The notes under the pieces were generated by a model. That model was not told the DNA's origin. It saw only the letters and a list, made by a program, of their open reading frames with translations, and did no database searches. Shown here piece by piece: positions 1,787-45,530 of a stretch of DNA of 45,828 bases (positions are counted from its first letter, which is position 1; each line of letters begins with the position of its first letter). The DNA comes from a virus (lineage: Duplodnaviria; Caudoviricetes): the IMG/VR virus record IMGVR_UViG_3300020045_002299, positions 1-45,828 of that record; one strand, 5' to 3'. The position numbers and the translations under genes are program-made.

Positions 1787-1804
1787 ATCCTCGAGGTAAC
1801 GATA

Positions 1805-1818
1805 TTTTTATACATTTG
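1805..1818 (+). promoter_or_regulatory. Bacteroidota-type -7 promoter element (TTTTTA-TACATTTG)
   Basis: TAnnTTTG at 1811-1818, 30 nt upstream of ATG 1848. Confidence 0.6.
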
Positions 1819-1847
1819 TAATCAATTATTAATTTAAACCAACAACC

Positions 1848-2324
1848 ATGAGAAAATCACTCGCAATTATTGCCCTGGCGTTATGCGCCTCGACCATGTT
1901 CGCCGAACAGTCAAAGACATACGGCAAAGCACCAACGGAGGCCGTAAACCTGACGACAGAGATCGCACTTACATCGACCGACATCGTGTCGCCGATGGTG
2001 TTGTCTGTAACTGAGGTAAACGACATCCTTTTCGCAACTGCTCAGATCTCCGCCGATGGCTATTGCCTTAGCAAGGCCAGCCAAATCACTTTCGGACTGA
2101 GGAACGGCCGACAGGTCATCGTGAACCACATAAACGGAAATTACTGCGACGTGGGTGCGAAATTTGTCTTTAAACTGAGTCCGGAGTCAATCAATAGTCT
2201 GTCAGAGTCGCCGATCTCGTTTATTTACTTCAAAGCCGACGAGGATTTTTATAATCTGCGAAAGATCACCGATAAGGATTTCTTTGTCCGAAATTTCAAG
2301 ATCCGGAAAAATAACAGCGGATAG
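1848..2324 (+). CDS. Exported protein with signal peptide (moron-like)
   Basis: MRKSLAIIALALCASTMFA signal peptide; has its own promoter and terminator. Confidence 0.8.
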   Translation: MRKSLAIIALALCASTMFAEQSKTYGKAPTEAVNLTTEIALTSTDIVSPMVLSVTEVNDILFATAQISADGYCLSKASQITFGLRNGRQVIVNHINGNYCDVGAKFVFKLSPESINSLSESPISFIYFKADEDFYNLRKITDKDFFVRNFKIRKNNSG

Positions 2325-2357
2325 CCATCCGTTTTATATTTGTTTGTTTTAGGGAAG

Positions 2358-2387
2358 AAAACCACGCTCAAAAGGCGTGGTTTTTTT
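2358..2387 (+). terminator. Rho-independent terminator
   Basis: AAAACCACGC-TCAAAAG-GCGTGGTTTTTTT. Confidence 0.85.
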
Positions 2388-2406
2388 GTTTGTGTAAATC
2401 CAAAGG

Positions 2407-2423
2407 TTTTTTATATAACTTTG
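2407..2423 (+). promoter_or_regulatory. Promoter for the virion operon (-7 element TAACTTTG)
   Basis: TAnnTTTG at 2416-2423 preceded by a T-run, upstream of ATG 2481. Confidence 0.65.
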
Positions 2424-2480
2424 CCGTACTGCGAGGGGAAGCAAAACCAACAATATTTTATTAATCTTAAATTTCATCTT

Positions 2481-3083
2481 ATGGATTGTAATTGTCCGGA
2501 GGCAACCTCGCTCGTCGAGATCGTTGCAGAAGCATGCGGGGTAAATCTTAAACAGATCCAACGCCTCGCCGCTCAGAGAGTCCAAACGACTCCAAGTTTT
2601 ACACCTACGACAATTTTGGATCTTTCAGCATGGCAGGACTTAATGTCGGCAACTGACTCGACCAAAATCGTCGTTACACCTTTAATCGCTGGAGATCCAG
2701 TAATCGAGCCAGGCGATAAAATCACGACCGGCGGAGGAGATAACTCGACTCTTAACGGCGTTGAAGAACTCGAGGGCGTAAATCCGTCGAATTTTTCCTG
2801 TCTGTTCAAATCGCTCTCAACAGCTACGGAGGTAGCAATTAAGGCTTTGATCTGCGAAAAAAACCTCACCATTTACCTCATCCTGGAGGGAGGTCGCATC
2901 GCATGCGCGACAGTTTCGGCAACCTGCTCAGGGTTTCAAATCCAGTCGTTTTTCCTCTCTGACAGAGGTAACGCCGGTTTTGGGACGAAAGACTCTTTTA
3001 AATGCTCGTTTGCTTTGCCGTCAGGCTGGTCGGAAAAACTTGCAATTTACAAACCGACCTGGAATCCTTTAACCGACTTGTAA
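2481..3083 (+). CDS. Major virion protein, probable tail tube
   Basis: True start MDCNCP at 2481; QIQRLA.QR, TKIVVTP, GGGDNSTLNGVEE and WNPLTDL motifs recalled from a B40-8/B124-14 major structural protein; tail tube role is inference. Confidence 0.7.
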   Translation: MDCNCPEATSLVEIVAEACGVNLKQIQRLAAQRVQTTPSFTPTTILDLSAWQDLMSATDSTKIVVTPLIAGDPVIEPGDKITTGGGDNSTLNGVEELEGVNPSNFSCLFKSLSTATEVAIKALICEKNLTIYLILEGGRIACATVSATCSGFQIQSFFLSDRGNAGFGTKDSFKCSFALPSGWSEKLAIYKPTWNPLTDL

Positions 3084-3084
3084 C

Positions 3085-3324
3085 ATGGACACAAAAGACA
3101 CGACAACAGCACCGGGGACTCCGGAGATGGTTTTGCTCAAAGCAAAAGACAAAACTGGCGAGGACATCGCGCCGAAAGAGTTCGAGATCTCGAGAGCGAA
3201 CAAACTGTTATCCCTGCATAATTCCCAATGGGAACTCGTTGCAGACAAAGGATATACCTGGAACGGCAAAGACCTCGCTAAAACAGCAGAGAACGCCGAG
3301 GAGACTGCAAAGCCTAAAAAATAG
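3085..3324 (+). CDS. Small hypothetical virion-operon protein
   Basis: Fills the gap between flanking genes; typical codon usage. Confidence 0.75.
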   Translation: MDTKDTTTAPGTPEMVLLKAKDKTGEDIAPKEFEISRANKLLSLHNSQWELVADKGYTWNGKDLAKTAENAEETAKPKK

Positions 3325-3330
3325 CCATTT

Positions 3331-5073
3331 ATGAAACTCACGAAAGAGCAAGCCATCGAGGTAATAAAATCGCCAGCATCAAAAAAACAGATCTCCGCCG
3401 CTAAGGAGCAGGAGTCTCAGTTGCGCGTTTTTACCGAGGATATGGATCTCGACGAGTTGAACGATGAGTTATATTGGCCGAAATTTAAAGCAAGAATGAA
3501 AGCACGTTTAAACAGTAAAAAGTTTAAGCGTGTTTTCGATTTTGCAAGGTATCCGCTCCCGACCATCGAAATCACCGACTCGATCCTCTCGGATTTTTTT
3601 AAGGTATTCGATGGGAAAAACCGAAATTTCCACATCGACGGAGACAGGGACATTTCCCTGCTTAATAAGTGGGTAATCGAAACGAACCTCGAGAAGTGGA
3701 TCGAGGAGCATGCCCGGAGCGTGTTTAAATCGAAACCCTGCTCGTTTGTTGTAATCGACCGGGACAAAAATGGCAAACCTTATCCGTTACTTATCGAGTC
3801 CTCCAGGCTCATCGATGCGAAATTCAAAAGCGCAAAAGGAGATCTCGAGTACATCGTATTTACGCACTCCGTCGTCGATAATGTAACTTATATTTCACTT
3901 TACGACGATGAGACTTATTGGGTATTTTCGACAACCGGCGGCGGAGATTACACTCTCGTCTCGGAAGCAAAACACCAAATCGGATACACGCCAGCGGTCG
4001 CATTTATATCGTCGGCATCAAACAGCAAAAATTACTTTAAGCGTCGCGTCGCTTTTACCAAATCGCTCTCGAAACTCGAGGACTGGACTCAGTTCGACAT
4101 TTACCGCAATTTCGTCGATCACTATGCGCCTTTTCCGGTTACTGAGTCTCCGATCCGCTCATGTCCAAATCCGGACTGTGAGGATGGAGTGATCTCGATC
4201 TCCGAGGTACTCGATCCGTCGAAACCCGAGGAGGAAACGATCAAATACTCGACGTGCGAGATATGCGCCGAACGCAACAGCGACAACGTTGGCCCTGGTA
4301 CTCATATCGGGATAAAGGTAAAACCGGAGAAAGATCAGGACGACGGGCGCGGAGTCTTTAAAATGATTTTCCCGGACGTTGATAAACTCGAGTACACTCC
4401 GAAAAAACTCGACGGCCTGGAGTTGGAGATCAGACACAAAACTGTCGGATTGAATTACATGGACTCGACTAATGAGGCCATGAACGAGATGCAGTTGTCG
4501 GGATCTTTTGCCTCGATGGAGTCGGTGTTGATCCGGACTAAAAACGAGATGGACATTTTATATAAGTGGATGGTCATTACAGCGGCCAGGATCTATTATA
4601 AAGAGATTAACGTCCGAGTCGATGCAAATTTCGGAACTGAGTATTATCTCGTTACCGAGGACGATCTCCAAAAGCGTTACAAAGCCGCGAAAGAGATGGG
4701 ACTCCCACAGGAGGAGCAGTTAATGATTTACCTGCAACTAATCGACACCAAATACAAAGGAAATCCGAACAAAGTCGAACGTCAAAAAATGCTCATCCGC
4801 CTCGATCCTTTGCCGCTTTATGACTTAAAGGATATTATCCAACTGAGGGACAAAATGATAATAGATGCCCAAACTTTATCGTTTAAAGCAAATTTTGTTA
4901 ATTTTGTCGCAAGGTTCGAGAACGAAAACGCACCGATCACGCAATTTGGCCTTAACATTCCGCCGGAGAAACGTCTCCTAAAGATCCGAGAGGAACTCGA
5001 TCGCTATAATGCGGAGTTGATGGCAAAAATAAAGGCAGAGCCAGTAAAACCGCCTGAGCCTGCCAAAGTTTGA
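3331..5073 (+). CDS. Portal protein
   Basis: 580 aa, upstream of scaffold and capsid; internal CxxxxC...CxxC insertion. Confidence 0.75.
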   Translation: MKLTKEQAIEVIKSPASKKQISAAKEQESQLRVFTEDMDLDELNDELYWPKFKARMKARLNSKKFKRVFDFARYPLPTIEITDSILSDFFKVFDGKNRNFHIDGDRDISLLNKWVIETNLEKWIEEHARSVFKSKPCSFVVIDRDKNGKPYPLLIESSRLIDAKFKSAKGDLEYIVFTHSVVDNVTYISLYDDETYWVFSTTGGGDYTLVSEAKHQIGYTPAVAFISSASNSKNYFKRRVAFTKSLSKLEDWTQFDIYRNFVDHYAPFPVTESPIRSCPNPDCEDGVISISEVLDPSKPEEETIKYSTCEICAERNSDNVGPGTHIGIKVKPEKDQDDGRGVFKMIFPDVDKLEYTPKKLDGLELEIRHKTVGLNYMDSTNEAMNEMQLSGSFASMESVLIRTKNEMDILYKWMVITAARIYYKEINVRVDANFGTEYYLVTEDDLQKRYKAAKEMGLPQEEQLMIYLQLIDTKYKGNPNKVERQKMLIRLDPLPLYDLKDIIQLRDKMIIDAQTLSFKANFVNFVARFENENAPITQFGLNIPPEKRLLKIREELDRYNAELMAKIKAEPVKPPEPAKV

Positions 5074-5099
5074 GTAAAAACCATTATTAATAATCTATT

Positions 5100-5789
5100 A
5101 TGAAAGTAGTAAAAAACACCGTAAAAGCCAACAATTTCAAACAGGCTTATGCAGAGTTGGCAGAGATCGACAAAGTCGAGGCCGATAAACTCACCGGAGA
5201 GATCGACGAAAACGATCGCGGCCATAACGTTGTCTTATGTATCCAAAGGATCAACAACGAGGCGAAAAAAAATTATGAGACTCGTCTCAGTATCCAACAA
5301 TTCGACCAGCAATCTTTCGAGAAACTGCAATCGAATTTCCAGTTTTTAGGATTTGACAGCATTATCCTTTTGCACAAAGCCGAGAAAGTGGAAACACCGG
5401 TCGCCGCTCCGGTAACTGCCGCCGCCGCCGCTGTTGAACCTGCCGCCGCCGTAACTGCTCCAGCCGCTCCGGTTGTAGGCAAAACAGAGGAGCAGATCCG
5501 CGAGGAGATGAGACTCGAGTTTGAGAAAAAATACGAGGGTTATGTCCCTGCTCCAGCCGCTCCTCCAGTTTCGGGATCGATCAGCGCGGAGGATCAGGAA
5601 GAACTCGACAAGAAAGCAAAATTACAGGGTTTTGTCGATACTGATCTGTCAAAGATCAAAAGCATCGACGGCCTCGCAAAATTCGCTCAGGATGCCGAGA
5701 TCGACATTACTGGCCTCGCGAAATATGCAGACATCAAAGACGCGCTCGTGGCATGGCAAACCGAGACGGCGGCAGAATTAGCCAAATAA
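5100..5789 (+). CDS. Head-associated hypothetical protein with Ala/Pro-rich linker
   Basis: Between portal and scaffold; PVAAPVTAAAAAVEPAAAVTAPAAP linker. Confidence 0.75.
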   Translation: MKVVKNTVKANNFKQAYAELAEIDKVEADKLTGEIDENDRGHNVVLCIQRINNEAKKNYETRLSIQQFDQQSFEKLQSNFQFLGFDSIILLHKAEKVETPVAAPVTAAAAAVEPAAAVTAPAAPVVGKTEEQIREEMRLEFEKKYEGYVPAPAAPPVSGSISAEDQEELDKKAKLQGFVDTDLSKIKSIDGLAKFAQDAEIDITGLAKYADIKDALVAWQTETAAELAK

Positions 5790-5824
5790 CAAAACACAAT
5801 TTTTAAACCATAAAAAGAGAAGAT

Positions 5825-6799
5825 ATGGACATTCAAGCAATTAAAGACGCTGTTACAGCAAAACCCGAATTACTGGACGGACTCGTCCTATACGTCGCCG
5901 AGACTGACAAAGGAAAGGCGTTAATCGATAACAAAGCGAAAGCACTTTCCGAAGCAAACATCGGCGAGGAGATCAAAAAAGTACATTCTCGTTATGACGA
6001 GGATGTTTTTGCGATTTTAGGCGACAGACCAAAAACTATCGACGGAAAACTGGAGAAAAGTTACGACATGGTAAAGAGACACCTCGAGAACTTAAAAAGG
6101 CTCGCGGCCATCGAAACCAATCTTAATGAGGCCGACGTGGTCAAACAAAAAAATGCCGAAATCGAGAAACTGAAACTCGAGGGAGGCGGCAAAATGTTCC
6201 AGGAGCAACTCGAACAAGCGAAAAAAGACTTTCTCGCCAAAGAGGAGGAGTACAAAACCAAACTGGAGGAGGCACAAAAGGGAGCAACCGACGGCCAGGT
6301 TAAAAACGACATCGCTGTCGCTGTCGCTGGATTAAAATTAAACCCGGATCTTACTCCGACGATGCGAGCCTTAGCCATAGAGAAAGCCGAGGCCGAACTG
6401 TTGAAAAACAGTAAAATCGTTGACGGAAAAGTGGTTTATTTGAAGCCTGACGGGACGACTTTGTTAAATGCAAAATATGAGCCAGCAAGCGCGGCGGAAG
6501 CACTCGCAGGGCTGGAAGTAGTGAAAGAGATCTCACTCAAAGAAACGCCTGGTAAAACAGGCGGCGAAGCACCTCCGGGATCGGGAGGAAACGTGCAAAC
6601 TGTAAAAGTCGAGGGGAAAGACGATGCTAAGAAATTGATATTTGAAACCGGGACGGCGTTCACAAGTAAAACCGATTTTATCGAGAAGTCTGAAAAGGCT
6701 CTCCTCGCGTCGGGATTTACGAGAGGCGACTCAGATTGGGACAAACTCAAAAACGAGGCATACATCGAGCATAAGGTTTCAGAACTGCCAGCAGAATAA
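5825..6799 (+). CDS. Capsid scaffolding protein
   Basis: Charged coiled-coil with Gly-rich segment near the C-terminus; directly upstream of the capsid gene. Confidence 0.7.
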   Translation: MDIQAIKDAVTAKPELLDGLVLYVAETDKGKALIDNKAKALSEANIGEEIKKVHSRYDEDVFAILGDRPKTIDGKLEKSYDMVKRHLENLKRLAAIETNLNEADVVKQKNAEIEKLKLEGGGKMFQEQLEQAKKDFLAKEEEYKTKLEEAQKGATDGQVKNDIAVAVAGLKLNPDLTPTMRALAIEKAEAELLKNSKIVDGKVVYLKPDGTTLLNAKYEPASAAEALAGLEVVKEISLKETPGKTGGEAPPGSGGNVQTVKVEGKDDAKKLIFETGTAFTSKTDFIEKSEKALLASGFTRGDSDWDKLKNEAYIEHKVSELPAE

Positions 6800-6824
6800 T
6801 TAACCTTTTAAATTTTTAGTAAAG

Positions 6825-7871
6825 ATGAGTTTAGCAAAAACCTATTTACAAGACATCCGCGTCGAGTATCCCTCGGAATTAGACCGCGACGAGTTGAGAA
6901 TCACGCAAAACGGCCTTTTGTATGCCGTTATCGAGATGACGAAATCAGTAAGATCGATCGTAAGTTCGGACTTAAAGAAAAAAGCCATTACGTCAAATGG
7001 CCGTAACCTGGACGTACCAGTTATGAAAAAAGGCACGGTTACAATCCTCAACGTGAGGTCGTGTACTATCGCCGGAGGTAACAGCGAGAGCGATTTGGTT
7101 CGTATCGTTTGGAAAACACTCCGCTCCGACATTTTCATGGTTCCGAGTGCCTACGACAAAAACATGATTTCTTACAAAGAGGATCTCGCGAAAAAATTGC
7201 GCGAACTCGTTGAGGCTTTCATGGTTGAAATCGAGGGCGATTTGGATACTGCATTGAACGCGAACAAAACTCAGGTTTATAACTCGACCATCGTTGGCTC
7301 GACTTACACCCTGACAGGAGGAGCGATTCAAGTGCCGGTAGCAAAACAGGATTTCTTTTTCAATGACGTTGCGCCGATCAACTTCGCGGACGACTTCTAT
7401 GCGCCGACGGTTCGTGTTATCGGATCTCACTCGATTATGAGTGTCGTGAGCAAATGGGGCAACCAGGGGACAGGTAACGCGATTAACACGTCGTTCCAAT
7501 TTCCAGGGAAAAACTTCTCTTTCTCGAATCAGATCACGGTCGGAGTCGGAAAACTGGCGACCGGTTACTTTATGGAGGACGGCTCGATCGGAATCCTTAC
7601 TCGTACCGATCCGGATGCGAGGAGAGCGGCCAAAGCGACCGACGGGACGACATGGATGGAGGAAACTCTGCCAGGTTTCCCTTTTGTGGTCGGAATCATG
7701 TACAAATCAAGTTGTAGCGACCAATCGCTCCTCGAGGCTGGCCTCACGCACTTAACGGCGACGTTAACGGAGCATTGGCAGATCTCGATGGATTTCGGTA
7801 TCGTCGTCCCTTACAACAGCGATCCCGTAACCAAAGCCGGAGCGATCCGTAAATTTGAGTTCGTACCGTAA
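6825..7871 (+). CDS. Major capsid protein
   Basis: 348 aa; MSL..T..Q.IR, ALNANKTQV and YNSD motifs recalled from the B40-8-type capsid protein; followed by a terminator. Confidence 0.85.
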   Translation: MSLAKTYLQDIRVEYPSELDRDELRITQNGLLYAVIEMTKSVRSIVSSDLKKKAITSNGRNLDVPVMKKGTVTILNVRSCTIAGGNSESDLVRIVWKTLRSDIFMVPSAYDKNMISYKEDLAKKLRELVEAFMVEIEGDLDTALNANKTQVYNSTIVGSTYTLTGGAIQVPVAKQDFFFNDVAPINFADDFYAPTVRVIGSHSIMSVVSKWGNQGTGNAINTSFQFPGKNFSFSNQITVGVGKLATGYFMEDGSIGILTRTDPDARRAAKATDGTTWMEETLPGFPFVVGIMYKSSCSDQSLLEAGLTHLTATLTEHWQISMDFGIVVPYNSDPVTKAGAIRKFEFVP

Positions 7872-7897
7872 TTTTACGTTATAGAGAAACCAATAAG

Positions 7898-7931
7898 AAC
7901 GCCTTATCTCTCCCGAGGTAGGGCGTTTTTT
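7898..7931 (+). terminator. Rho-independent terminator after the capsid gene
   Basis: AACGCCTTATCTC-TCCC-GAGGTAGGGCGTT followed by a T-run. Confidence 0.85.
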
Positions 7932-7948
7932 AATAAAACAGAGTAATT

Positions 7949-9085
7949 ATGTTTGACATTCCAAAAGTTAAAGCCGCATATAAGAACCTGATCGGATGGA
8001 GGCCGCATTTCGACAACTGCATCACCGTAAACGACAGCAATAAAACCTCAGAGTCCGGAGACTATTATCAGGACAAATTTCCTCCGCTCAGGCTGGATTA
8101 CATCATGGCCTCCCTGACAGACAAACAGGACATAAACAAATATATCGCCGAAAAGGTCGAGGTCGCAACGGTCAACGTCTTTAACGACGTTCTCCAAAAA
8201 CGCCAGGTCGAGGGATACGGAAAGACTCTCCTCGAGCAGGTGCAATTATTAAACCGGCCGAGTTTCCTCAGCGATAAGATCGTAAACCAAAGCCGTTTCG
8301 TCGGCTTTCAGATCAAAGTCAAAGACGTGACCGGTTTGCAGGTGCTAATCGATCAAATCGGTTTGCAGTTGGACGGAGCGCAGGAAACAATAAATATTTA
8401 TTTGTTTCACTCCTCCAGGATCGAGCCGCTCAAAGTTTTCGAGATCTCGACACTTAATTCCGCGTGGGTTTGGAAATCGATCTCGGCCAGCCTGGACTCG
8501 ATGGACAGCGAGAAGTTTTTCGGCGGCGTGTTTATCCTCGGTTATTATCAAAACGATCTGACCAGGATGGCGATCAATTACTCAAATTTTGACTGGAATA
8601 AGGGAGAGTGCCAGGGATGCGGAACGTCTTATTACAGTTTATGGAAATCGGTGCAAAATCATTTCCACATTTATCCGATCTATTGGCCGGAGGGTAATTA
8701 CACCGTCGGGGAGATGCCCGACCTCTCGCTGGCGAGTTACGACAATGCGAAATCCTGGGGACTAAATCTAAAATTGACAGTCCGTTGCGACCTGACGTTT
8801 TTCTTTGTCCAAAACCGTTTCGTATTTAAGAACCTGCTCGGATACCAGGTTGCTTTATTAATACTCAACGACATGCAGTTCTCGACGGAGATCAACTCGA
8901 CGCACGAGCAACTCCGAAACATGATAATCAGGACGCTCGAGGGCGATAAGGAGACCAACGCGCTCAACCTGCCGCAACAGTACTCGAGAGAATTAAAAGC
9001 CGTCAGTTTCAATATTTCCGATATTAACCGGGTTTGTCTCGGTTGCATCGAGGACACTTATCAACCAGTAATCGGAGTCGTGTAA
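7949..9085 (+). CDS. Virion protein (putative head-tail connector/adaptor)
   Basis: Position after the capsid gene; 378 aa with CxxC motifs. Confidence 0.6.
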   Translation: MFDIPKVKAAYKNLIGWRPHFDNCITVNDSNKTSESGDYYQDKFPPLRLDYIMASLTDKQDINKYIAEKVEVATVNVFNDVLQKRQVEGYGKTLLEQVQLLNRPSFLSDKIVNQSRFVGFQIKVKDVTGLQVLIDQIGLQLDGAQETINIYLFHSSRIEPLKVFEISTLNSAWVWKSISASLDSMDSEKFFGGVFILGYYQNDLTRMAINYSNFDWNKGECQGCGTSYYSLWKSVQNHFHIYPIYWPEGNYTVGEMPDLSLASYDNAKSWGLNLKLTVRCDLTFFFVQNRFVFKNLLGYQVALLILNDMQFSTEINSTHEQLRNMIIRTLEGDKETNALNLPQQYSRELKAVSFNISDINRVCLGCIEDTYQPVIGVV

Positions 9086-9528
9086 TGTTTGACAGACAAC
9101 TCGCTTTTATCGATGACATGCCGAACCTGATTAATATCTCGTTCCGACAGGCTATCCACGAGAACGGCGGAGTAATCGAGAGTTACATTACTCAGAGGCA
9201 GTTACCAAAAGGACTCGACGGCAAAGGAGTAAAACTCCGGGAGTATAAGGAGGTTTATAAGCGAGTTCGCGCTTACAAAGGATTACAGACTGAAAACACC
9301 GACTTAAAAGTTACCGGATCGTTTTACGCCAGCGTCGAGGTCGAGTCCGACGATGTCGGTTTCACCGTAAGGAGCGGAGTCAGTTTCGGAAAGTATCTCG
9401 TCGATAAAAGTGAGTCTTATTATGCATACGGTTTCGACATTTTACGACCATCCGCTGAGAATATGAAAGAGTTTTTTGAGACTTACGTGGCATCAGAGAT
9501 AAAAAGACGATCGCACGGCCTCAAATAA
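9085..9528 (+). CDS. Putative neck/tail-completion protein
   Basis: Start MFDRQ at 9085 overlapping TAA; DLKVTGSFYAS motif typical of neck proteins. Confidence 0.6.
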   Translation: MFDRQLAFIDDMPNLINISFRQAIHENGGVIESYITQRQLPKGLDGKGVKLREYKEVYKRVRAYKGLQTENTDLKVTGSFYASVEVESDDVGFTVRSGVSFGKYLVDKSESYYAYGFDILRPSAENMKEFFETYVASEIKRRSHGLK

Positions 9529-9623
9529 TAGCGGTTTTTTAACGATGTCGTGCCTCGTGACAGAGGAGTGTCGAAAATATATAAAAGTGCCTTAAAACGA
9601 ATAATCGCAAAAAATAGCAGACC

Positions 9624-10214
9624 ATGAATATCAGTAATTTAGAAAATAAACAATTTCAAGTCTTAAACCCGGTCGAGATCGATTTGGCCGTGAACAATCT
9701 CCGGGAGCAACTCTCGAAACTTACTTTTATTTCTCACCCGTTCCATATTGCCCAACGTTTTTACAAAAAGGACGAGAAAAATGGAAAGACGTATTATTTT
9801 CCGGAGATCTACATCGCCAGCGGCCAGGACAAAGACGATCGATACATCCGTCTCACGCCCGACAACAAACTCAAAGGATCGTTTTTCTTTGTGGTATCAA
9901 CGGCAAAGGATAACGGAGACGGTTTCCTGATCTATAACATCGGGATCGTGTTTTCCGTAAACCTCGAGTTAATCGATCCGGTCAAATACAAAAATTATCT
10001 TTTCACTCAGGAACTCATCGGCCAGGCGCGTCAGGTTTTAAAGGCCGCAAAGCATGCCGTCGATTTTACGTTCGAGGTAAAGGAGGAGGTCAGGGACACC
10101 CGGGAGGTGTTCAAAGAATACACCATCGACGAGGTCAACGCCAACGTTTTCAACCGCGCACCGATGCAATGTTTTCGCTTTAACATTACGGCGACCATCG
10201 AGATCCCGTGCTAA
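9624..10214 (+). CDS. Putative tail terminator/completion protein
   Basis: Position and size. Confidence 0.5.
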   Translation: MNISNLENKQFQVLNPVEIDLAVNNLREQLSKLTFISHPFHIAQRFYKKDEKNGKTYYFPEIYIASGQDKDDRYIRLTPDNKLKGSFFFVVSTAKDNGDGFLIYNIGIVFSVNLELIDPVKYKNYLFTQELIGQARQVLKAAKHAVDFTFEVKEEVRDTREVFKEYTIDEVNANVFNRAPMQCFRFNITATIEIPC

Positions 10215-10234
10215 TCCATTAAAATCAATTTACC

Positions 10235-10600
10235 ATGTGCAACCAGTACGACATCGAAATCAACAGAGGCGACACTTTCAACGAAAGAGAACTCGAACTC
10301 GTCGAGTATGACGACGAAACCATCCCACACATCGAAACGCCGGTCGATCTGACCGGAGCGAGTATCTTAATGCAGGTTAGGCAGAGTCCGGGATCGACGG
10401 TTTTGCATGAGTTCTCGACCGCAAACGGAAAGATCGAAATCACCAACGCGATCGGCGGACAGTTCCGGATCAAAGAGGAGATTATCAATATCGCCGCCGG
10501 TCTTTACCAGCATGACATCCAAATCACTTTCGGAGACTTAACAGTCCGGACGTATTTCAAAGGCATTTTTAAAGTAAACGACGACATCTCCAGGCCATGA
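10235..10600 (+). CDS. BppU-N-like Ig-fold virion adaptor protein
   Basis: RGDTF...VDLTGA...MQVR...DIQIT...TYFKG.F.V..DISR pattern. Confidence 0.7.
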   Translation: MCNQYDIEINRGDTFNERELELVEYDDETIPHIETPVDLTGASILMQVRQSPGSTVLHEFSTANGKIEITNAIGGQFRIKEEIINIAAGLYQHDIQITFGDLTVRTYFKGIFKVNDDISRP

Positions 10601-12591
10601 GCATAATCCACAAACTAATCATTAACACCGTTGTCAACGAGACCAGCGTTTCGATCACCGAGAACGTCACGAAAGTAATGCTCAAAGACAACAGCGTCCG
10701 AAAGGTTACGATCGTAAAGATCTCAGACAGTAAGGGCATCAAAGGAAATCCCGGACTCAACTCGTTTGAGTTTTGGCTCACGTTGCCAGGAAACGAGGGA
10801 AAGACCATCGACGATTATAACGCCTTTTACAAAGGTGAGCCTGGTGAGGATCTCCACAAAACACTCGAGCAGGTACGCCTCGAGGATAACAGGATCGACG
10901 GAGACATCGACGCAAAAAACCAAAGTACTGTTATAAACATCCGGGACGCTGTCGATGCTCACGAACCGGCCGCACTTCACCAGGTCGAGGAGATGAGGGA
11001 CGAGGCCAAAAGTTACGCCGATACGGTTTCCGCCGATGCCGCCGCCGCCGTTACCCTGGAGCAGACCAGGCAGAACGATAACGAACTCGGAGGAAATATC
11101 GACGCGGCCGGTAATACGATCGACAACCTGCAAAACGCCATCGATCCGCAACAACCGGCAACGCTCGCGCAGATCCAGCAAGTCCTCACCGATGCGAAAA
11201 ATTACACCGATACAAAGACCGTTGACGCTGTCCGTTGGGTTGCTTATTGGGATGCAACAGGCGGCATATATCCGACAGGTTTCCCCGGAGGCCAAAAGCG
11301 CGGCGACGAGTTCGAGGCAAATAATGCGACCGTCGTCCTCATGCCTGACGGACAGGAAGTGCAAAAAGGAGACGTTTTCCGCGCCAGGATAAACGCTCCA
11401 GGTCAAAATCCATTAAACTGGTCGATAAGCGACGGGAACGCGCAACAGGCGACAGAACTAAATCTCGGACTCGTAAAGATCGCACCGCAAACCGAGGCGC
11501 AAAATATCAACTCGACAGATGACAAAACGGCGATTACTCCGTTAAAGCATTGGATCGCGATGGTGTACTTTAAAACTCTCGTCCATGCTTGGGATCTCCG
11601 CCAAATATTCACGACAGGGATCAGACTGCCATCGCTCACAAACGGGCAATATTTGCGCGTGGATGCCAGTAAGGACGTAATCGGACAGACCGGCATCCCT
11701 GCCAGCGATATAACCACGCTCGACGCGACTCATCGCTGGTGGACGGACGCGCTCGCCACGACGCTCTCCGGGAAAGAGAACTCGACCAACAAACAGAACA
11801 GTCTCGCGACAGATGGCACGGGAGCAAAGTTTCCGACGGTCGATGCGACAAACGCCGGTCTCGCGTTAAAACAGGAGGATTTGTGGACATTCCAGCGCAC
11901 AAAAGGGATTTATTTCTTTGAGGACTTTCTCGGAGGAGGCGGAGGCGCGGGTTTCAGTTTTTCCAATACGTTAGGGATTGGATCTCTGACAAGCGGAACA
12001 GGCGCGGGATCGTCTGCCCTGCTCGGGCGTAATAATGGATGGAGGTCGATGTTTACCGGAACAACAGCAACAGGCCAGGGCGGTCTCTCATACGGAGGCG
12101 GCGGAACGTATTACACGGGATCGGGCGCGATGACAGTCGAGTCCCTTATCGAGCCGCTCGCGCTTTCAATATCGACGGACAGGTATTTTTATATAAATGG
12201 ATTTTTGAACGCTACCTCAAATTATGTGAGTCCTGGATCGGGAATTTTCTTTTTATATGACGAGGGTAATGTTTGGGGATTTGGAGCGTCAGGAGGCGGA
12301 TTAAATTGGAAATGCGTCACTCTCAACGGTTCGGGCAGACTCATCACGACGACAGCCGTGCCGGTCGCACTTAATGGTCAGTATAAACTCCGCATCGAGA
12401 TAAACTCAGCAGGCACGAGCGTCGAATTTTACATTAATAATGTTTTAGTCGCCACGCATACGACATTTATCCCGATCGCCGCGACCGGGATCTCATGGCT
12501 TAATATTTTAAACAAATCAGTCGGGACGACCTCGATGTCTTTCGGGATCGACTTTCTCGCTTACCGGCATTTATTCGCCGCAACACGTTAA
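10597..12591 (+). CDS. Fibre/receptor-binding protein with C-terminal lectin-like beta domain
   Basis: Short collagen-like GIKGNPG, duplicated ~57-aa stalk repeat, Gly-rich C-terminal domain with YKLRIE...VEFYINNVLVAT. Confidence 0.7.
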   Translation: MSIIHKLIINTVVNETSVSITENVTKVMLKDNSVRKVTIVKISDSKGIKGNPGLNSFEFWLTLPGNEGKTIDDYNAFYKGEPGEDLHKTLEQVRLEDNRIDGDIDAKNQSTVINIRDAVDAHEPAALHQVEEMRDEAKSYADTVSADAAAAVTLEQTRQNDNELGGNIDAAGNTIDNLQNAIDPQQPATLAQIQQVLTDAKNYTDTKTVDAVRWVAYWDATGGIYPTGFPGGQKRGDEFEANNATVVLMPDGQEVQKGDVFRARINAPGQNPLNWSISDGNAQQATELNLGLVKIAPQTEAQNINSTDDKTAITPLKHWIAMVYFKTLVHAWDLRQIFTTGIRLPSLTNGQYLRVDASKDVIGQTGIPASDITTLDATHRWWTDALATTLSGKENSTNKQNSLATDGTGAKFPTVDATNAGLALKQEDLWTFQRTKGIYFFEDFLGGGGGAGFSFSNTLGIGSLTSGTGAGSSALLGRNNGWRSMFTGTTATGQGGLSYGGGGTYYTGSGAMTVESLIEPLALSISTDRYFYINGFLNATSNYVSPGSGIFFLYDEGNVWGFGASGGGLNWKCVTLNGSGRLITTTAVPVALNGQYKLRIEINSAGTSVEFYINNVLVATHTTFIPIAATGISWLNILNKSVGTTSMSFGIDFLAYRHLFAATR

Positions 12592-12594
12592 ACA

Positions 12595-12861
12595 ATGGAA
12601 AAATATATTATCCTTTTCGGGATCACGCTGTTTTTATATAACCTCGGCTTAAAGCTGGGGTTTTGGTATTTCATGGAGCAACTCTCCGGGCGCATGACGA
12701 TCCGGTTACTCCATCAGCTTTTACAATGTCCCTGGTGCATGATGTTTCATGTGAGTTGGATCTTAACAATAATTTACGGTATATTGTTCGGTTTTGATTA
12801 TTCTCTTTTAACTTTACCGTTTATAAATGCCGGATTACTCACCCTAAAAATGACAAAGTAA
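12595..12861 (+). CDS. Small membrane protein with CPWC motif
   Basis: Two to three hydrophobic segments; QCPWCMMF. Confidence 0.7.
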   Translation: MEKYIILFGITLFLYNLGLKLGFWYFMEQLSGRMTIRLLHQLLQCPWCMMFHVSWILTIIYGILFGFDYSLLTLPFINAGLLTLKMTK

Positions 12862-13352
12862 TGGTTTACCAATTTGGAAAGCACGAAATCGAGATTTACG
12901 ACAGCGTTCAAAATATGCCGATCCTCCGGTTTCAAAAGCTAAATAAATATACCATGATAGACCTGGAGATCGGGAGCGATTTCGCGGATTACGATAAGCG
13001 CACCGAGAAAGCGTTGGCCTTTCTCGCAAAGGGCATGGTCGCCGAGGCATCTCAGGAATTACAGAACCGCCGCCAACTGGTTTACAATGCTTACAATGAG
13101 CAGAGTCCAAAGGGCAAAGCGTTCGCGGTGTTGATCCATCGCATCGATAAGGTCGAGTATAAAAAGTTTGCTCCGGATGACCTGGATCGCATCCTGATCC
13201 ATTTAAACGACATCGGGTTCGATATTTTTACGTCAGTTGAAAAGCTGAGGGAAGTAAAAAAAAACTCGAGACGGAATTGGGCGCATATTTTCCAAAGTAT
13301 TTTCCTAAAAATGCGAACCAGGAGGAGACCGCTCTCAGGCACAAGCGAGTAA
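12861..13352 (+). CDS. Tail assembly chaperone (gpG-like)
   Basis: Upstream of the tape measure gene; contains a slippery A9 run. Confidence 0.75.
   Translation: MVYQFGKHEIEIYDSVQNMPILRFQKLNKYTMIDLEIGSDFADYDKRTEKALAFLAKGMVAEASQELQNRRQLVYNAYNEQSPKGKAFAVLIHRIDKVEYKKFAPDDLDRILIHLNDIGFDIFTSVEKLREVKKNSRRNWAHIFQSIFLKMRTRRRPLSGTSE
13254..13265 (+). other. Programmed -1 ribosomal frameshift site (GTA AAA AAA AAC)
   Basis: X XXY YYZ heptamer; the -1 frame is open through KKLETELGAYFPK... to 13615. Confidence 0.8.
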
Positions 13353-13615
13353 ACACGATCCTCGACTGGATAATCAACGGCGGCGTTACCGATGAGCCTG
13401 CCACATACCAACTCGAGAAAGAGATCCTCGAGAATGACCGGCCGAACAGTTGGAATATTTGGAAAGAGGATAACATGGAGAAAATGCTCGAGGTCGATTT
13501 TCATAAGTTTGCGATAGCCGTAACCCAACACACCGGCCAAAAATTAAAGAACCTCTCAACGTTCTCGTTTTATGCGAGTGTCGCGCTGATCGAGGAGAAA
13601 CACCAACCAAAATAA
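13262..13615 (+). CDS. Frameshifted C-terminal extension of the tail chaperone (gpGT-like)
   Basis: -1 frame ORF with only a weak TTG start, ending 9 nt before the tape measure gene. Confidence 0.75.
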   Translation, partial: KLETELGAYFPKYFPKNANQEETALRHKRVNTILDWIINGGVTDEPATYQLEKEILENDRPNSWNIWKEDNMEKMLEVDFHKFAIAVTQHTGQKLKNLSTFSFYASVALIEEKHQPK

Positions 13616-21369: not shown

Positions 21370-22482
21370 ATGGCCGATAATCTCGCAATAGTAAAAGAGC
21401 ATTTAGACACCGCAATCGATCCAGCGGCAGATCCGGGACAAATTCTCGCCCAGGAGCATAACGACGTTTTTACCGAGATGCTTTCCAAAGTTGGAAAATA
21501 TACCGGCGGATCGTTTACCGTAAAAGGCGGAGCGGCGACGGTTATGTTACCGGGACAGATTTACATCCTGGCCGCGTTGGTTGCCGCCGATGTCATCCTC
21601 GTAATGAGCCAAACGACAAACGACGGTAATTATACCAGCAATATTTTGTCAAATTGCAACCGGGGCGATGTCCTGCATCTCAAAGATTATAACGGCCGGA
21701 GTTCTTATTTGAAAATATCGGAAATTACCGAGGGCGTGGATACTGTTGAGACTCCGACATTTGTCGTCAGCACGAAACCAATGCCAGGAAATCAAAATTA
21801 CACTTATCAGGTGTCCGACGCGCTGATCTGCATTGTCGAGGTCATTAAGGGACAGGATTTCGACGCTTTGCTTAGTAAGATCGACTTACGCCTCACCTGG
21901 GCAAAGTATGACGGAAAAATCGAAGATCCGGTCGGTGAAGATTTCGACACCTATTTTAAAAATGTAATGTTTACGGGAATATTGCCGGGAGGAATTACAA
22001 CTCCAGGAGTCGTAAAGGTTAAGCAACCGATTATAAAAACGAAAAATTACGACCTCATTGCAGATTACTCTCCAAAGGTTATAATCGAGCGATATTCGCC
22101 TCAAAAATACAAAGGCAAGGAATTAGACACAAATTTGCGTAATTTCCAGAACGCCGGATATAAACGCGACATCGTCAACGCTTTTGGTCGTCCGTCAGAG
22201 TTTGATTTGACGAGTGAGAACTTTATCCAGGATTTATTTGCTGAGTATTATTTCCAGGTCGAAAGTTTCCCAATCCCGAGAGGGATCGGTCGCCGAAATT
22301 TTTCCGGGTTCGATAATCCGAGCGGATTACGTGAAAATCTAAAAGGTTATGTATATTTGCGCTTTAAAATACAAATTACGGTCGATGGCGTGGACTACAT
22401 AAGCGAGCCGAAATGTCCGTTTAAGATAGTGGGAATCGCGACGGATACCTTTAAACTGATTTCGTATGCGTTGAATATATAA
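21370..22482 (+). CDS. Tail-associated protein with a distinct basic/aromatic C-terminal domain
   Basis: N-terminal ILAQEHNDV fibre-anchor-like motif; C-terminal ~200 aa more AT-rich. Confidence 0.7.
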   Translation: MADNLAIVKEHLDTAIDPAADPGQILAQEHNDVFTEMLSKVGKYTGGSFTVKGGAATVMLPGQIYILAALVAADVILVMSQTTNDGNYTSNILSNCNRGDVLHLKDYNGRSSYLKISEITEGVDTVETPTFVVSTKPMPGNQNYTYQVSDALICIVEVIKGQDFDALLSKIDLRLTWAKYDGKIEDPVGEDFDTYFKNVMFTGILPGGITTPGVVKVKQPIIKTKNYDLIADYSPKVIIERYSPQKYKGKELDTNLRNFQNAGYKRDIVNAFGRPSEFDLTSENFIQDLFAEYYFQVESFPIPRGIGRRNFSGFDNPSGLRENLKGYVYLRFKIQITVDGVDYISEPKCPFKIVGIATDTFKLISYALNI

Positions 22483-22485
22483 AGA

Positions 22486-22562
22486 TTTGGTATTTTGTCA
22501 TAGGCAGCCTGTTTTGGCGCTTGTTATACCAGCCTGTTTTTGGCGGGGGTTATATATACCTG
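22486..22562 (+). repeat. Three-unit degenerate tandem array TTTGG-N5/6-GTYATA-N4/5-CCTG (25-26 nt period)
   Basis: Units 22486-22511, 22512-22536 and 22537-22562 read directly from the sequence. Confidence 0.75.
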
Positions 22563-22566
22563 AAAG

Positions 22567-22596
22567 AACATCGTCACCGCGACGATGTTTTTTTTT
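22567..22596 (+). terminator. Rho-independent terminator
   Basis: AACATCGTC-ACCGC-GACGATGTT followed by a T-run. Confidence 0.85.
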
Positions 22597-22605
22597 ATAC
22601 TTTTG
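22592..22605 (+). promoter_or_regulatory. -7 promoter element TACTTTTG overlapping the terminator T-tract
   Basis: TTTTTA-TACTTTTG, 12 nt before ATG 22618. Confidence 0.55.
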
Positions 22606-22617
22606 GTAAAAAATAAT

Positions 22618-24348
22618 ATGTGTGATCCTACAAAAACGCCAATCCTAAACATCAGTTTCATCGCTCCGGGAGACGAGATAAATTGGTTTAACAACACCGC
22701 AAATCCTATCAATATTGAAAACGAAAAACTAATCCTCAGACCGAGCGGACAGGGATCGGTTTTCTCCAGGACACTCGGAGCGGTTTCCGGCGATCGAGAT
22801 CGGTTTCGCATGGTGTTGAACTTTGAGGCATATCGCCCGGCACTCGACGGCGCAAAAGACTCGACGTACATCGTACAGGTGTTGCACGGCGGCAAAGTGA
22901 TCGGTCAATATATCGTCCCGTTTAAATCAATCGCTCCGGGGCAAATTGTAAAATACAGCCTCGACAGGACGATAAAAAACGACGGCCTGTCCGGGAACTT
23001 TTCGTTAAAAATTATGAGTCCGACCGGTTTCGAGAATGAGATCCGGATCTCGAGTATTTTGGCCGAGGAGTTTAATTTTTGCACCGAGAAAGTGAGGAGT
23101 TATTTTATTTTGCAGGATCTTTTCGAGAAAAGCCTCTCCTCTCAGACATCGGCCATCAGACTCAACCGTTTTAAAATTGACGGAATCGAGACGCTGACAA
23201 ATGCGTTTCTCGCTTACAACACGCAGAACCTCGGACACAATCCCGAGGCGGATTGGCTTTTCGGACGTGCAAATCTTGACGGACAGGACAGACAGGAAAC
23301 TTTCGCTTATGCCAACACTTTTAATCCTTTTGTCGCGGAGTTAGGCCTCACCTTTGGAGATGCCGCATATCACGGCGGAAACGCTACCGAGACGACGGAC
23401 GGACAGGATTATGGCTCGGCACTTTTCGCGATTGGAGTCGATAAGCCGGAAATCCTCAACGCTTTGCAACAGGTTCGCAAAGGCGCATTTTATCTCGACA
23501 TCGATTACACGAAAGGCCTGTTTATGGATTTCGATGTCGTCATCAACAACGTATCGGACGAGGTTTTTACAGATCCCGACATTTACCGAAATTATCGTCT
23601 CGTTTGGGACTTCGACAAAAAAAAGACCTCATTTTTTTACATCGACAAAAAGACCGGCGTTAAAGTCGATCAGCTTGCAAACGGTTTCCTCGCAGGAGCA
23701 ACCGGAGAACAACGGCAGATCGACGAACTCGCAATCGGCCAGCGGATCAATTACGGAACAAACGAGAGAGATTTCGATTTTTATTTCGACGTACCGGCAG
23801 GAGAGGGAAACACCGGCATCGAGTTTGACACCGGAGAGATCCCGACAAAAATCGACATCCTGGACGGAAACGACACCTATACGACAAATTACCTCGGAAA
23901 GTCCGAAAACAATCAGTACTTATTAAATGCCTTAGTCCCGGCAAATCTTATCAAAACGACGGCCGACGGAAATGGGAAAGGGAAAATTATATTTTTCAAA
24001 CCGACCGGCGCGAAAACCTTACAGGTAAAAGTCTCGACTCCGGTACTCGGTGCGCTGGGATACTTTAAAACACTTTTCTCGACCGCCTCATCGCTCGAGA
24101 TTGGAGTGGGAGGATGCGCCGATGAGGTCGATTATACCGACAGCGTGTTCATGGCGTTATCAGATCCGGAGGTTTTCGAGATCTCCGACGGCCTCGAATT
24201 ATTCCAGGACGAGGCGTTGTCGATACCGTTCAACGGACATAATCAAACATATAAGGCGAGATTGTACGGAAAAAATGGTTTAATTTACACCGGCGTAAGT
24301 TTCAAAGTCGGCTCGACCGGCATCGTGAGCGAGACAACAACCTGTTAA
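22618..24348 (+). CDS. Tail/baseplate structural protein
   Basis: Start MCDPTK at 22618 (A-rich context); beta-rich; late operon. Confidence 0.65.
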   Translation: MCDPTKTPILNISFIAPGDEINWFNNTANPINIENEKLILRPSGQGSVFSRTLGAVSGDRDRFRMVLNFEAYRPALDGAKDSTYIVQVLHGGKVIGQYIVPFKSIAPGQIVKYSLDRTIKNDGLSGNFSLKIMSPTGFENEIRISSILAEEFNFCTEKVRSYFILQDLFEKSLSSQTSAIRLNRFKIDGIETLTNAFLAYNTQNLGHNPEADWLFGRANLDGQDRQETFAYANTFNPFVAELGLTFGDAAYHGGNATETTDGQDYGSALFAIGVDKPEILNALQQVRKGAFYLDIDYTKGLFMDFDVVINNVSDEVFTDPDIYRNYRLVWDFDKKKTSFFYIDKKTGVKVDQLANGFLAGATGEQRQIDELAIGQRINYGTNERDFDFYFDVPAGEGNTGIEFDTGEIPTKIDILDGNDTYTTNYLGKSENNQYLLNALVPANLIKTTADGNGKGKIIFFKPTGAKTLQVKVSTPVLGALGYFKTLFSTASSLEIGVGGCADEVDYTDSVFMALSDPEVFEISDGLELFQDEALSIPFNGHNQTYKARLYGKNGLIYTGVSFKVGSTGIVSETTTC

Positions 24349-26351: not shown

Positions 26352-26831
26352 ATGAAAAAAGCATTTTTATTTTTATTCCTTATCGCCTCGCTAATCTGCC
26401 AGGCGCAAATTACCGGCAGAGTCGTAAAGATCAAAGACGGAGACACCGTCGTCGTTTTGGATGCCAGCAACAAAGAAACGACCGTCCGCCTGGCCGGTAT
26501 CGACTGCCCGGAGAAAAAACAGGATTTCGGGAGCGCGGCGCGAGTCTTTACCTCGATGCAAATCTTTGAATATACCGTCAGAGTGAAAGTCGTAACCGTT
26601 GACCGTTACGGACGGACGATCGGCTGGATTACTTACGGCGAGAAGTTCGAGAAAGACCTCTCTCGCGAGTTACTAAAATCCGGACTCGCCTGGCATTATA
26701 CCGATTACGATAAGTCGAAGTATTTGCAGAGCCTCGAGAATAAGGCGAGAAAGCAAAAAATCGGACTTTGGAGTCTGCCCGATCCAATCCGTCCGAGTGA
26801 ATTTCGGAGCGCAAAAACAGTAAAACGATGA
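26352..26831 (+). CDS. Secreted thermonuclease (SNase family)
   Basis: Signal peptide; DGDT, VRLAGIDCPE, DRYGRT, GLAW and ARKQKIGLW motifs. Confidence 0.92.
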   Translation: MKKAFLFLFLIASLICQAQITGRVVKIKDGDTVVVLDASNKETTVRLAGIDCPEKKQDFGSAARVFTSMQIFEYTVRVKVVTVDRYGRTIGWITYGEKFEKDLSRELLKSGLAWHYTDYDKSKYLQSLENKARKQKIGLWSLPDPIRPSEFRSAKTVKR

Positions 26832-27400: not shown

Positions 27401-27402
27401 AT

Positions 27403-27489
27403 TATATTTGCCTCGGGTTTGTGTAATAGTGTGGTATTGCATCAAAGTTGTGTTTTGAAAGGAGTCTCCTCAAAAGGGAGACTTTTTTT
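27403..27489 (+). ncRNA. Candidate ~70-nt GU-rich small RNA
   Basis: TATATTTG -7 element at 27403-27410, no ORF, ends in a terminator. Confidence 0.4.
27463..27489 (+). terminator. Rho-independent terminator (end of late operon)
   Basis: AGTCTCC-TCAAAAG-GGAGACT followed by a T-run. Confidence 0.85.
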
Positions 27490-27494
27490 GTGCG

Positions 27495-27543
27495 TAAATA
27501 AATTAAAAAATGTTTTGTAATTAAATTATATTATTTACATTTG
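27495..27543 (+). promoter_or_regulatory. Early promoter, divergent copy of the 50-bp cassette
   Basis: TAAATAAATTAAAAAATGTTTTG...TACATTTG. Confidence 0.75.
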
Positions 27544-27566
27544 CCAAAACAAACACCATTTTCCTC

Positions 27567-27749
27567 ATGCAACCACAAGCGCAAAAAGATCCTGGTTATC
27601 CGAAAATTATCGATATTTCCAGCAGAAAACAACCATTTAAGCACGACCGGAGAGATCCAAATTTCGACAGGCCTCTCGCCGATCTAAAACAAACCTTTCC
27701 AAAACCCGTAACCGGGATATTATTTTTTAAAATCAGGCCACAAAATTAA
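27567..27749 (+). CDS. Small hypothetical early protein
   Basis: First ATG after the promoter. Confidence 0.5.
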   Translation: MQPQAQKDPGYPKIIDISSRKQPFKHDRRDPNFDRPLADLKQTFPKPVTGILFFKIRPQN

Positions 27750-27776
27750 TCCTTAATCAATTAATATTTTTTCATT

Positions 27777-33603: not shown

Positions 33604-33650
33604 AATAAATTAAATAATGTTTGGAGATTAAATAATTTACTTTATATTTG
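33601..33650 (+). promoter_or_regulatory. Early promoter cassette (TTTG-N19-TATATTTG), identical to 45451-45500
   Basis: Exact 50-bp repeat; Bacteroidota primary-sigma consensus. Confidence 0.88.
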
Positions 33651-33672
33651 CATTACCTAAAACACAATAGTA

Positions 33673-35925: not shown

Positions 35926-35929
35926 AACC

Positions 35930-35958
35930 AAAACCGAGACATCCTCTCGGTTTTTTTT
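35930..35958 (+). terminator. Rho-independent terminator
   Basis: AAAACCGAGA-CATCC-TCTCGGTTTT followed by Ts. Confidence 0.85.
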
Positions 35959-35966
35959 ATGCAATG

Positions 35967-36015
35967 AAAATAAATTAAATAATGTTTGGTAAATAAATAA
36001 TTTACTTTATATTTG
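35967..36015 (+). promoter_or_regulatory. Early promoter cassette (3 mismatches to the 33601 copy)
   Basis: AAAATAAATTAAATAATGTTTGG-taaa-TAAATAATTTACTTTATATTTG. Confidence 0.88.
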
Positions 36016-36045
36016 TCAAAGTAAAAACACCTAAACACAAATATC

Positions 36046-45375: not shown

Positions 45376-45405
45376 AGGATCACGACAGTAATGTCGCGAA
45401 CAGCC

Positions 45406-45438
45406 AACGCGGTCTCGATTTGAGTCCGCGTTTTTTTT
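45406..45438 (+). terminator. Rho-independent terminator after terL
   Basis: AACGCGG.CTC-GATTT-GAG.CCGCGTT followed by a T-run. Confidence 0.8.
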
Positions 45439-45450
45439 GTGGCATCACAT

Positions 45451-45500
45451 TAAAATAAATTAAATAATGTTTGGAGATTAAATAATTTACTTTATATTTG
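45451..45500 (+). promoter_or_regulatory. Early promoter cassette identical to 33601-33650
   Basis: Exact 50-bp repeat. Confidence 0.88.
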
Positions 45501-45530
45501 TACTCACATAACAGCAAATAATAAAACAAA

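Follow-up and report, generated by a model that had tools for sequence, protein, structure and literature searches.

Why is a phage tail gene followed immediately by three short repeat units and a terminator, and does this array belong with the protein encoded before it? The question is raised by a 45,828-nt stretch of viral DNA (the window; IMG/VR record IMGVR_UViG_3300020045_002299), a complete virus record whose genes resemble those of Flavobacterium phages and whose plus strand carries portal, capsid, tail and lysis genes. A preliminary description of the locus had suggested a module made of a protein and a repeat RNA. We traced both parts through related loci (L numbers) drawn from phage records, IMG/VR, metagenomes and genome samples. 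The protein's C-terminal domain and the predicted RNA element behind its gene apparently form an undescribed module, whose function we infer below; in the open-access full-text literature, a scope that leaves subscription papers largely outside, we found no description of such a pair.

The tail-region protein and its C-terminal domain

The 370-aa open reading frame (21370-22482, plus strand) is flanked by a tape-measure/tail-tip block and by holin and lysis genes. In a profile search the protein matched phrog_12000 (E 5.7e-46, residues 2-355), a family without annotation and of unknown function that was also matched by 33 of 42 members of the domain family described here. Of 32 matching phage records, 30 (the FpV9 group and phage 1/32) contained full-length homologues with 26-30% identity, while the other two (tant8-1) had only residues 3-160 in common with it. 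The N-terminal part is found with different C-termini, and is likely the particle anchor.

21370..21864, plus strand: N-terminal domain of about 165 aa, common to tail-region proteins with other C-termini
21880..22482, plus strand: C-terminal domain (residues ~171-370), predicted RNA binder of an undescribed family (AlphaFold2 pLDDT 83.7)
22618..24348, plus strand: next tail-region gene (phrog_13374)

The next gene likely starts at 22618 and not at 22585, because its homologues open with Met-Cys at the corresponding site and 22585 falls within the terminator. We also considered the array as a decayed N-terminal extension of this gene and rejected the idea, since in FpV9 the corresponding extension consists of the repeat element and terminator. 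The FpV9 coding sequence concerned (ALN97201; L001:7207-7391, KT876725.1) is annotated about 61 codons too early, and its extension is a translated three-hairpin element with terminator.

Residues 171-370 were searched against 1.84 billion representatives, which gave 39 matches at E <= 0.001, one of them (P0009, a repetitive match) dropped as spurious. The domain was C-terminal, on carriers of about 195-1140 aa with unrelated N-termini. Conserved features were a P-x-L-x-I-x-R-Y strand, a K/R-rich loop with G-Y/F-K, an R-P pair, a D-x3-E-x-Y-F motif, and a glycine followed by basic residues; the domain had been called basic and aromatic, and R/K/Y loops are indeed conserved across the family. 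The last 150 aa carried a net positive charge in 33 of 34 loci (median +7.5); the whole domain of the window protein is nearly neutral (27 K/R vs 25 D/E).

The AlphaFold2 model of the domain was mainly beta and confident (pLDDT 83.7). Its core bore a weak likeness to Ig/FnIII sandwiches (80 residues aligned at rmsd 2.6 in the best match, Z 6.0; about 100 insert residues unmatched), and many further FnIII/Ig rows fell at Z 4.6-5.4, the score level of common arrangements. The predicted fold is an Ig/FnIII-like beta-sandwich with long basic inserts. The C-terminal Ig-like domains of PorU and mirolase were among the weak fold matches (Z 5.2 and 4.9), again at the level of common arrangements. By sequence the domain had no match in Pfam, PADLOC (0 of 42 members) or PDB sequences; the 42 members matched six Pfam families in all, with Nop, toxin and nuclease families absent among them. 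ESM Atlas gave no feature match and one unnamed Bacteroidota cluster (TM 0.51), Foldseek with a low-confidence full-length model against the PDB gave nothing at E <= 0.001, and BFVD gave one match, an unnamed 398-aa protein equal in length to the FpV9 homologue. No longer fusions of the domain were found among proteins of 1216-3470 aa, the sole size range searched, which says little. Pattern scans with a single protein or with A3 found no viral loci, and those with A5 none in genome contigs.

The domain occurred in FpV9-like siphophage tails, in crAss-like structural regions (in one locus beside a weak CrAss_Ring_3_4 neighbour), in the operon of a contractile injection system and in DUF2586 tail clusters. 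It also stood alone, as a 194-aa form, in an integrase-bearing element, and was found at the ends of operons for giant Ig-repeat proteins. In overlapping genome samples around a Tenacibaculum genome it was present in 6 of 401 (family), 12 of 401 (order) and 2 of 401 (phylum). Judged by sequence, the C-terminal domain is a swappable module on unrelated N-termini in Flavobacterium phages, crAss-like phages, an injection system and chromosomal operons. In two of the giant-protein operons (L039:2477-16447 and L043:4228-19197) a short domain gene closes an operon of two proteins of more than 2100 aa, one with invasin/Ig repeats, in chromosomal surroundings that do not look phage-like.

The composition of the window gene also bears on the origin of the domain. 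Positions 21870-22482 had a GC of 0.41, among the lowest 3.5% of windows, compared with 0.465 for the genome; TCGAG/CTCGA occurred once in the domain-coding part against a mean of 5.6 (lowest 5%); and two of the three genomic copies of GAAGAT lay in the domain region. The array held the only GGCGCT of the genome and one of two GCAGC, both words that the genome avoids, and one of two genomic copies of CCAGA lay in the domain and array region. The composition claims of the first description thus held in part, for AT-richness, scarce TCGAG and double GAAGAT; plain TCGA is not lost (7 copies in 613 nt). The C-terminus was only half rightly called foreign: composition hints at recent arrival in this genome, yet the same two-domain protein occurs in FpV9-like phages and phage 1/32. 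The composition of domain and array fits a joint recent arrival, or a structural constraint on the RNA.

Several further features of the window were recorded. Restriction-site-like words are strongly avoided, with no copies of CTAG (12 expected), GGATCC (62), GGACC/GGTCC (55 each) or GTCGAC (40), and many other 6-mers are also at zero. Just 5′ of a tape-measure-like gene, two overlapping reading frames (12861-13352 and 13277-13615) match successive halves of phrog_8914 (2-140 and 143-249), an overlap which we take to be a likely programmed frameshift of the tail-chaperone type. A 664-aa protein with an SO2946-like C-terminal domain (10597-12591; PF22237, E 7.6e-8) and a high GC of 0.52 is a separate receptor-binding candidate. 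A staphylococcal-nuclease-like gene with an apparent signal peptide (26352-26831) lies within the lysis cassette, and an SPFH/Band 7 gene at 1241-1786.

The array of the window and its predicted fold

The three units occupy 22486-22511, 22512-22536 and 22537-22562, the first starting 3 nt past the stop at 22482. They are 25-26 nt long with variable parts of 4-6 nt. The pattern TTTGG-N5/6-GTYATA-N4/5-CCTG, which had been fitted to these same three units, matched three times in the window, always at the array, and never in 200 dinucleotide shuffles. The sequences and positions of the units, and the terminator after them, were as first reported. Of the reported layout, the alternation of conserved and variable parts held, while the unit boundaries did not. 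This first register was rejected because its boundaries run through hairpin loops, and its variable segments turned out to be paired arms.

In the register that we adopted, the 3′ arm of each unit pairs with the 5′ arm of the next, and the last unit pairs with the first. The arm that follows linker 1 pairs with the one that precedes linker 2, and the arm that follows linker 2 with the one that precedes linker 3; both helices have a bulged A and matched base changes. The arm behind linker 3 in turn pairs with the one in front of linker 1. This yields a predicted closed three-way junction whose three GUYAUA linkers are equal.

22489..22560, plus strand: predicted three-way-junction RNA; the cyclic pairing is the best of 6 permutations
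22489-22493 with 22556-22560, plus strand: closing helix of the predicted junction (pair probability about 0.3)
22502-22509 with 22516-22522, plus strand: second junction helix, bulged A 22506 (pair probability 0.97)
22529-22534 with 22542-22546, plus strand: third junction helix, bulged A 22531 (pair probability 0.04-0.41)
22497..22502, plus strand: junction linker 1 (GUCAUA)
22523..22528, plus strand: junction linker 2 (GUUAUA)
22549..22554, plus strand: junction linker 3 (GUUAUA)
22562..22594, plus strand: intrinsic-terminator-like hairpin with a 14-pair stem and U run, predicted transcript end
22598..22605, plus strand: TAnnTTTG promoter-like box for the next gene, at the same position in L001, L002, L005, L006, L020 and L022

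The junction is not the minimum-energy fold of the window array (-17.2 vs -21.5 kcal/mol, 4.3 above the minimum). Taken alone, neither this array (z -0.64) nor that of FpV9 (z 0.14) folded better than shuffles, and an ungapped triple-repeat test did not detect the window array (z 0.8). Because the fold is suboptimal and the array alone does no better than shuffles, the case for the junction rests on its relatives. Rfam at gathering score gave no match in the window, FpV9 (L001) or phage 1/32 (L002).

TAnnTTTG, which we take to be the Bacteroidota -7 promoter motif, stands behind the element in seven phage loci including the window, and is likely a separate promoter for the gene that comes next. 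In L032 and L035 the gene behind the element lies on the opposite strand. The position of the boxes in the seven phage loci and the opposite-strand genes argue that the element is not a downstream switch. FpV9 and L005 carry a second promoter-like box between stop and element, from which the element could be made as a separate RNA. The same type of box ends each of four near-identical AT-rich intergenic elements of the window (33604-33672, 35926-36045, 45376-45530 and 27401-27776), which are probably a repeated early promoter with operator.

The element behind other domain genes

Whether homologues of the domain also have arrays downstream was the check that had been proposed for the module. 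Six duplicates were dropped, and the remaining 34 non-redundant domain loci had a non-coding stretch behind the stop, with three clear units in 17. The gap to the next gene was at least 100 nt in 30 of the 31 loci in which it could be measured, and 62 nt by naive ATG calling in the other; three loci had no next same-strand reading frame. Control neighbour genes (n = 111) had a median gap of 6 nt, with at least 80 nt in 22. Eleven genes shared the N-terminus of the window protein: the gap was at least 102 nt in all 6 with the domain and in none of the 5 without it (-4 to 64 nt; Fisher p 0.002). Among tandem paralogues, six that lack the domain had gaps of -4 to 5 nt, and their five domain-bearing neighbours gaps of 62-503 nt with the element. 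L007 was omitted from the control count because its reading frame exceeds the sequence taken. Results showed that the element tracks the domain gene whatever gene comes next, as the idea of a protein plus repeat-RNA module predicted. In three of the five domain-less loci the slot of the element is taken by a reading frame of 157-183 aa without Pfam match; from position alone, these small proteins might be guessed to be chaperones.

The element takes three forms. A closed junction with three linkers occurred in 12 loci including the window, and the cyclic pairing was the best of 6 permutations in 11 of them, L016 being the failure; the closing helix taken alone was best in 7 of 12 (p 0.07). Four related loci gave a consensus with three 7-nt linkers and 92% of cells paired, in which 16 of 33 pairs had changed on both sides, a number equalled in none of 500 shuffles and compared with 1-5 in slid controls. 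Three hairpins formed the element in five loci (FpV9, L005, L006, L037 and L046); in FpV9 the three units measure 27 nt each and carry UUCG loops and an A-A mismatch. The other 17 loci had larger folds with recurring GUARGA words in which three units were not evident (e.g. L002, L008, L017, L020 and L036), and in a chromosomal group of this form 11 of 76 pairs had changed on both sides.

The sense strand had 91 copies of the word GYNRKA, where 39.6 were expected and none of 300 simulations exceeded 58; the opposite strand had 32. The word was absent from 5 of the 34 loci. The linkers and GYNRKA were picked by eye from the same loci, several of which are close kin, so the p-values are overstated. 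Over the first 170 nt, folding reached z <= -2 in 16 of 34 loci, and the triple-repeat test z >= 3 in 14 of 34. Elements of relatives showed G-U exchanges and UUCG, UACG or GAAA loops; between lineages the pairing was conserved and the sequence was not. The domain tree had several deep lineages, and RNA type clustered by lineage (8 changes vs 14.1 shuffled, with near-copies contributing). Terminator-like hairpins also stood behind the elements of FpV9, phage 1/32 and L005.

Two loci differ in copy number. In L044 (15127-15620) a cassette of about 145 nt, made of three A-A-mismatch hairpins and a long terminal hairpin, is present in three tandem copies that follow three paralogous fibre-like genes, of which only the last has the domain. 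L046 has a similar repeat with unit loss.

Proposed role of the RNA and its alternatives

The domain and the element travel together, and it is quite probable that the element is an RNA read by the basic loops of the domain. For its role, we propose, at a probability of roughly 0.4, a three-site scaffold that aligns and locks three domain copies of a fibre predicted to be a trimer. In the window the element would be transcribed as the 3′ end of the mRNA; in FpV9 and L005 it would have a promoter-like box to itself. The domain would bind a linker-plus-helix of the element, the carrier proteins would be trimers, and the RNA would act as an assembly template whose three equal sites gather three chains by their last domain. 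It would sit where the last domain of each chain exits the ribosome and could set the register for trimer folding. The RNA would thus do the job of the foldon or chaperone modules of other fibres, and it may be released afterwards or remain on the particle. Collagen and tail-fibre proteins are trimers that need C-terminal registration. Gathering three chains would be the simplest use of three sites, because the count of three is kept in two topologies and some carriers are collagen or fibre proteins. Among the carriers, 2 of 42 rows were collagen-repeat fibres, one gave a weak match to a YadA head (E 0.007), and others matched tail-fibre PHROGs, had short leaders or belonged to the contractile injection system operon; most have no recognisable trimeric repeat, and some are barely more than the domain (L031, 194 aa). 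A broader proposal, which we hold somewhat more tentatively, is a class of ribonucleoproteins in which one pseudo-three-fold RNA would template a protein trimer via the mRNA 3′ tail or a derived small RNA, and may persist as an RNA-tipped fibre on a tail or injection particle. If true, RNA would match the symmetry of a protein trimer and so take part in building or decorating tail fibres and components of injection systems across Bacteroidota, and the pair would be a small portable tool for templated trimerisation.

Autoregulation, which we regard as unlikely, is the most credible of the rivals. The domain would bind the three sites in its own 3′ UTR, or in a small RNA derived from it, and tune mRNA stability or translation, with free protein limiting its own synthesis, as RNA-phage coat proteins do at operator hairpins. 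The tie of the element to the domain gene, right behind the stop, would suit this, the bulged or A-A-mismatched hairpins look like protein-binding operators, and several sites would make the response cooperative. However, such operators usually overlap gene starts, the box between stop and element in FpV9 and L005 would yield a free RNA, and regulation leaves unexplained both a 200-aa domain on unrelated structural proteins and the closed three-fold shape. The operator hairpins of the MS2 and PP7 coat proteins and lambda boxB are similar in being short bulged hairpins, here too presumably read by a phage protein, and in MS2 and PP7 a structural protein binds its own RNA, as is predicted here. 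They differ in that they come singly or in pairs, at the starts of translation or at nut sites, whereas the present element has three sites in one pseudo-symmetric fold after the stop, with an unrelated Ig-like domain as predicted reader. In the window, FpV9 and L005 the repeats stand immediately 5′ of a terminator-like hairpin, an order that also recalls the control of read-through, for which lambda N at boxB is the model: protein on the repeats would decide whether transcription enters the downstream tail and lysis genes. We give this little credence, since seven phage loci have a separate promoter-like box for the downstream gene, several chromosomal loci have no nearby co-oriented downstream gene, and several crAss-like loci have no evident separate terminator stem after the junction (by eye). 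Under these regulatory rivals too, the locus would hold an undescribed predicted RNA-binding domain with its cognate RNA family.

The RNA might instead work mainly outside the particle or at infection, as a surface binder, decoy or delivered cargo on the fibre tip. The domain does substitute for other variable C-termini on the same anchor, it spans siphophages, crAss-like phages and a contractile injection system, and the arm sequences vary, with much larger folds in some relatives. We nevertheless consider an outward role improbable: the variable arms pair internally and leave little variable surface, and nucleases would presumably reach exposed RNA. Least credible to us is a purely DNA-level element in which the repeats are recombination or cassette-exchange sites that move the domain between fibre genes. 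Avoided words cluster in the module as if it had moved as a unit, it is fused to unrelated N-termini, and the L044 cassette is tandemly triplicated; against this stand pairing conserved without sequence, the G-U exchanges, UNCG/GNRA loops and sense-strand bias that suggest RNA, and a 5′ junction of the domain without the element that exchange would need there. The assembly scaffold also has a counterpart made of protein alone, in that foldons, intramolecular chaperones and Tfa share the C-terminal position on fibre-like proteins; those modules are protein-only.

To a toxin/antitoxin-like or counter-defence pair, in which the domain would harm or inhibit the host and the RNA neutralise it, we give less credence even than to control of read-through; its toxin/antitoxin-like form had been raised in the preliminary description. 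Type III systems such as ToxIN likewise set short tandem RNA repeats next to a terminator and the gene of a protein, and in their triangle three proteins are held by three units of RNA (PMC5086642); L040 has a stand-alone form in an integrase-bearing element. According to the same source, ToxI lies upstream and is processed into monomers with pseudoknots, and its partner protein is an endoribonuclease (PMC5086642). By contrast, the window has the opposite order of gene, repeats and terminator, one closed fold, and a protein without toxin match. The ToxIN/CptIN/TenpIN order, in which the repeats precede the toxin gene and a terminator separates the two, would fit if the element were read as upstream of the next gene, yet it follows the domain gene whichever gene lies beyond. 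The domain matched no ToxN or PADLOC model (0 of 42 members) and no toxin or nuclease Pfam family, and its Ig-like fold has no evident catalytic set. The earlier view that the locus resembles type III systems without matching them was thus borne out, since the repeats are not upstream and the toxin families are missing, whereas the toxin-like reading itself was not. Processing into units of about 25 nt is not suggested either, because the units close into one fold.

The same distinction applies to TIGR-Tas, in which a phage protein gene is followed by an array with two variable segments between the conserved blocks of every unit (PMC12045711). In the account given there, TIGR needs a Nop domain, box C/D, 36-nt units and free 8-12-nt spacers that target DNA (PMC12045711). 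Here the three units have 25-26 nt, the variable parts are mutually paired and covary, and there is no Nop match, so the likeness again proved to fall short of a match, lacking 36-nt box C/D units and free spacers as well. The guide-like reading is not supported either: the variable segments are partners in pairing, and nowhere else in the window was any 11-nt piece of the array found again. The word TGATG(A) occurred only in L018 and L021 and was absent from the window array.

By analogy the module would work most like the pRNA of phi29, but it is not a member of that group. The phi29 pRNA is a phage-encoded non-coding RNA with a three-way junction and a structural part in particle assembly (PMC5066667). 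The present element is proposed to resemble it; its predicted junction is backed by the cyclic pairing and by covariation in relatives, but is suboptimal in the fold of the window array. According to the review, pRNA is a structural RNA in tailed-phage assembly that is unique to phi29-like phages, multimerises into a prohead ring and docks the packaging ATPase (PMC5066667). The present element differs in being one RNA with three equivalent units behind a tail-region gene, tied to one domain and without Rfam match. In the window the terminase is at 43876-45375, and the three-unit element lies instead in the tail block.

The module is directly testable, being carried by the cultured phage 1/32 and the FpV9 group. 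L040 is a good minimal system: it holds a 12-kb integrase-bearing element (1547-13383) that encodes a GH108 lysozyme, an ArdC-like protein and the domain in its stand-alone form of 194 aa, behind which comes a clean junction of three units.
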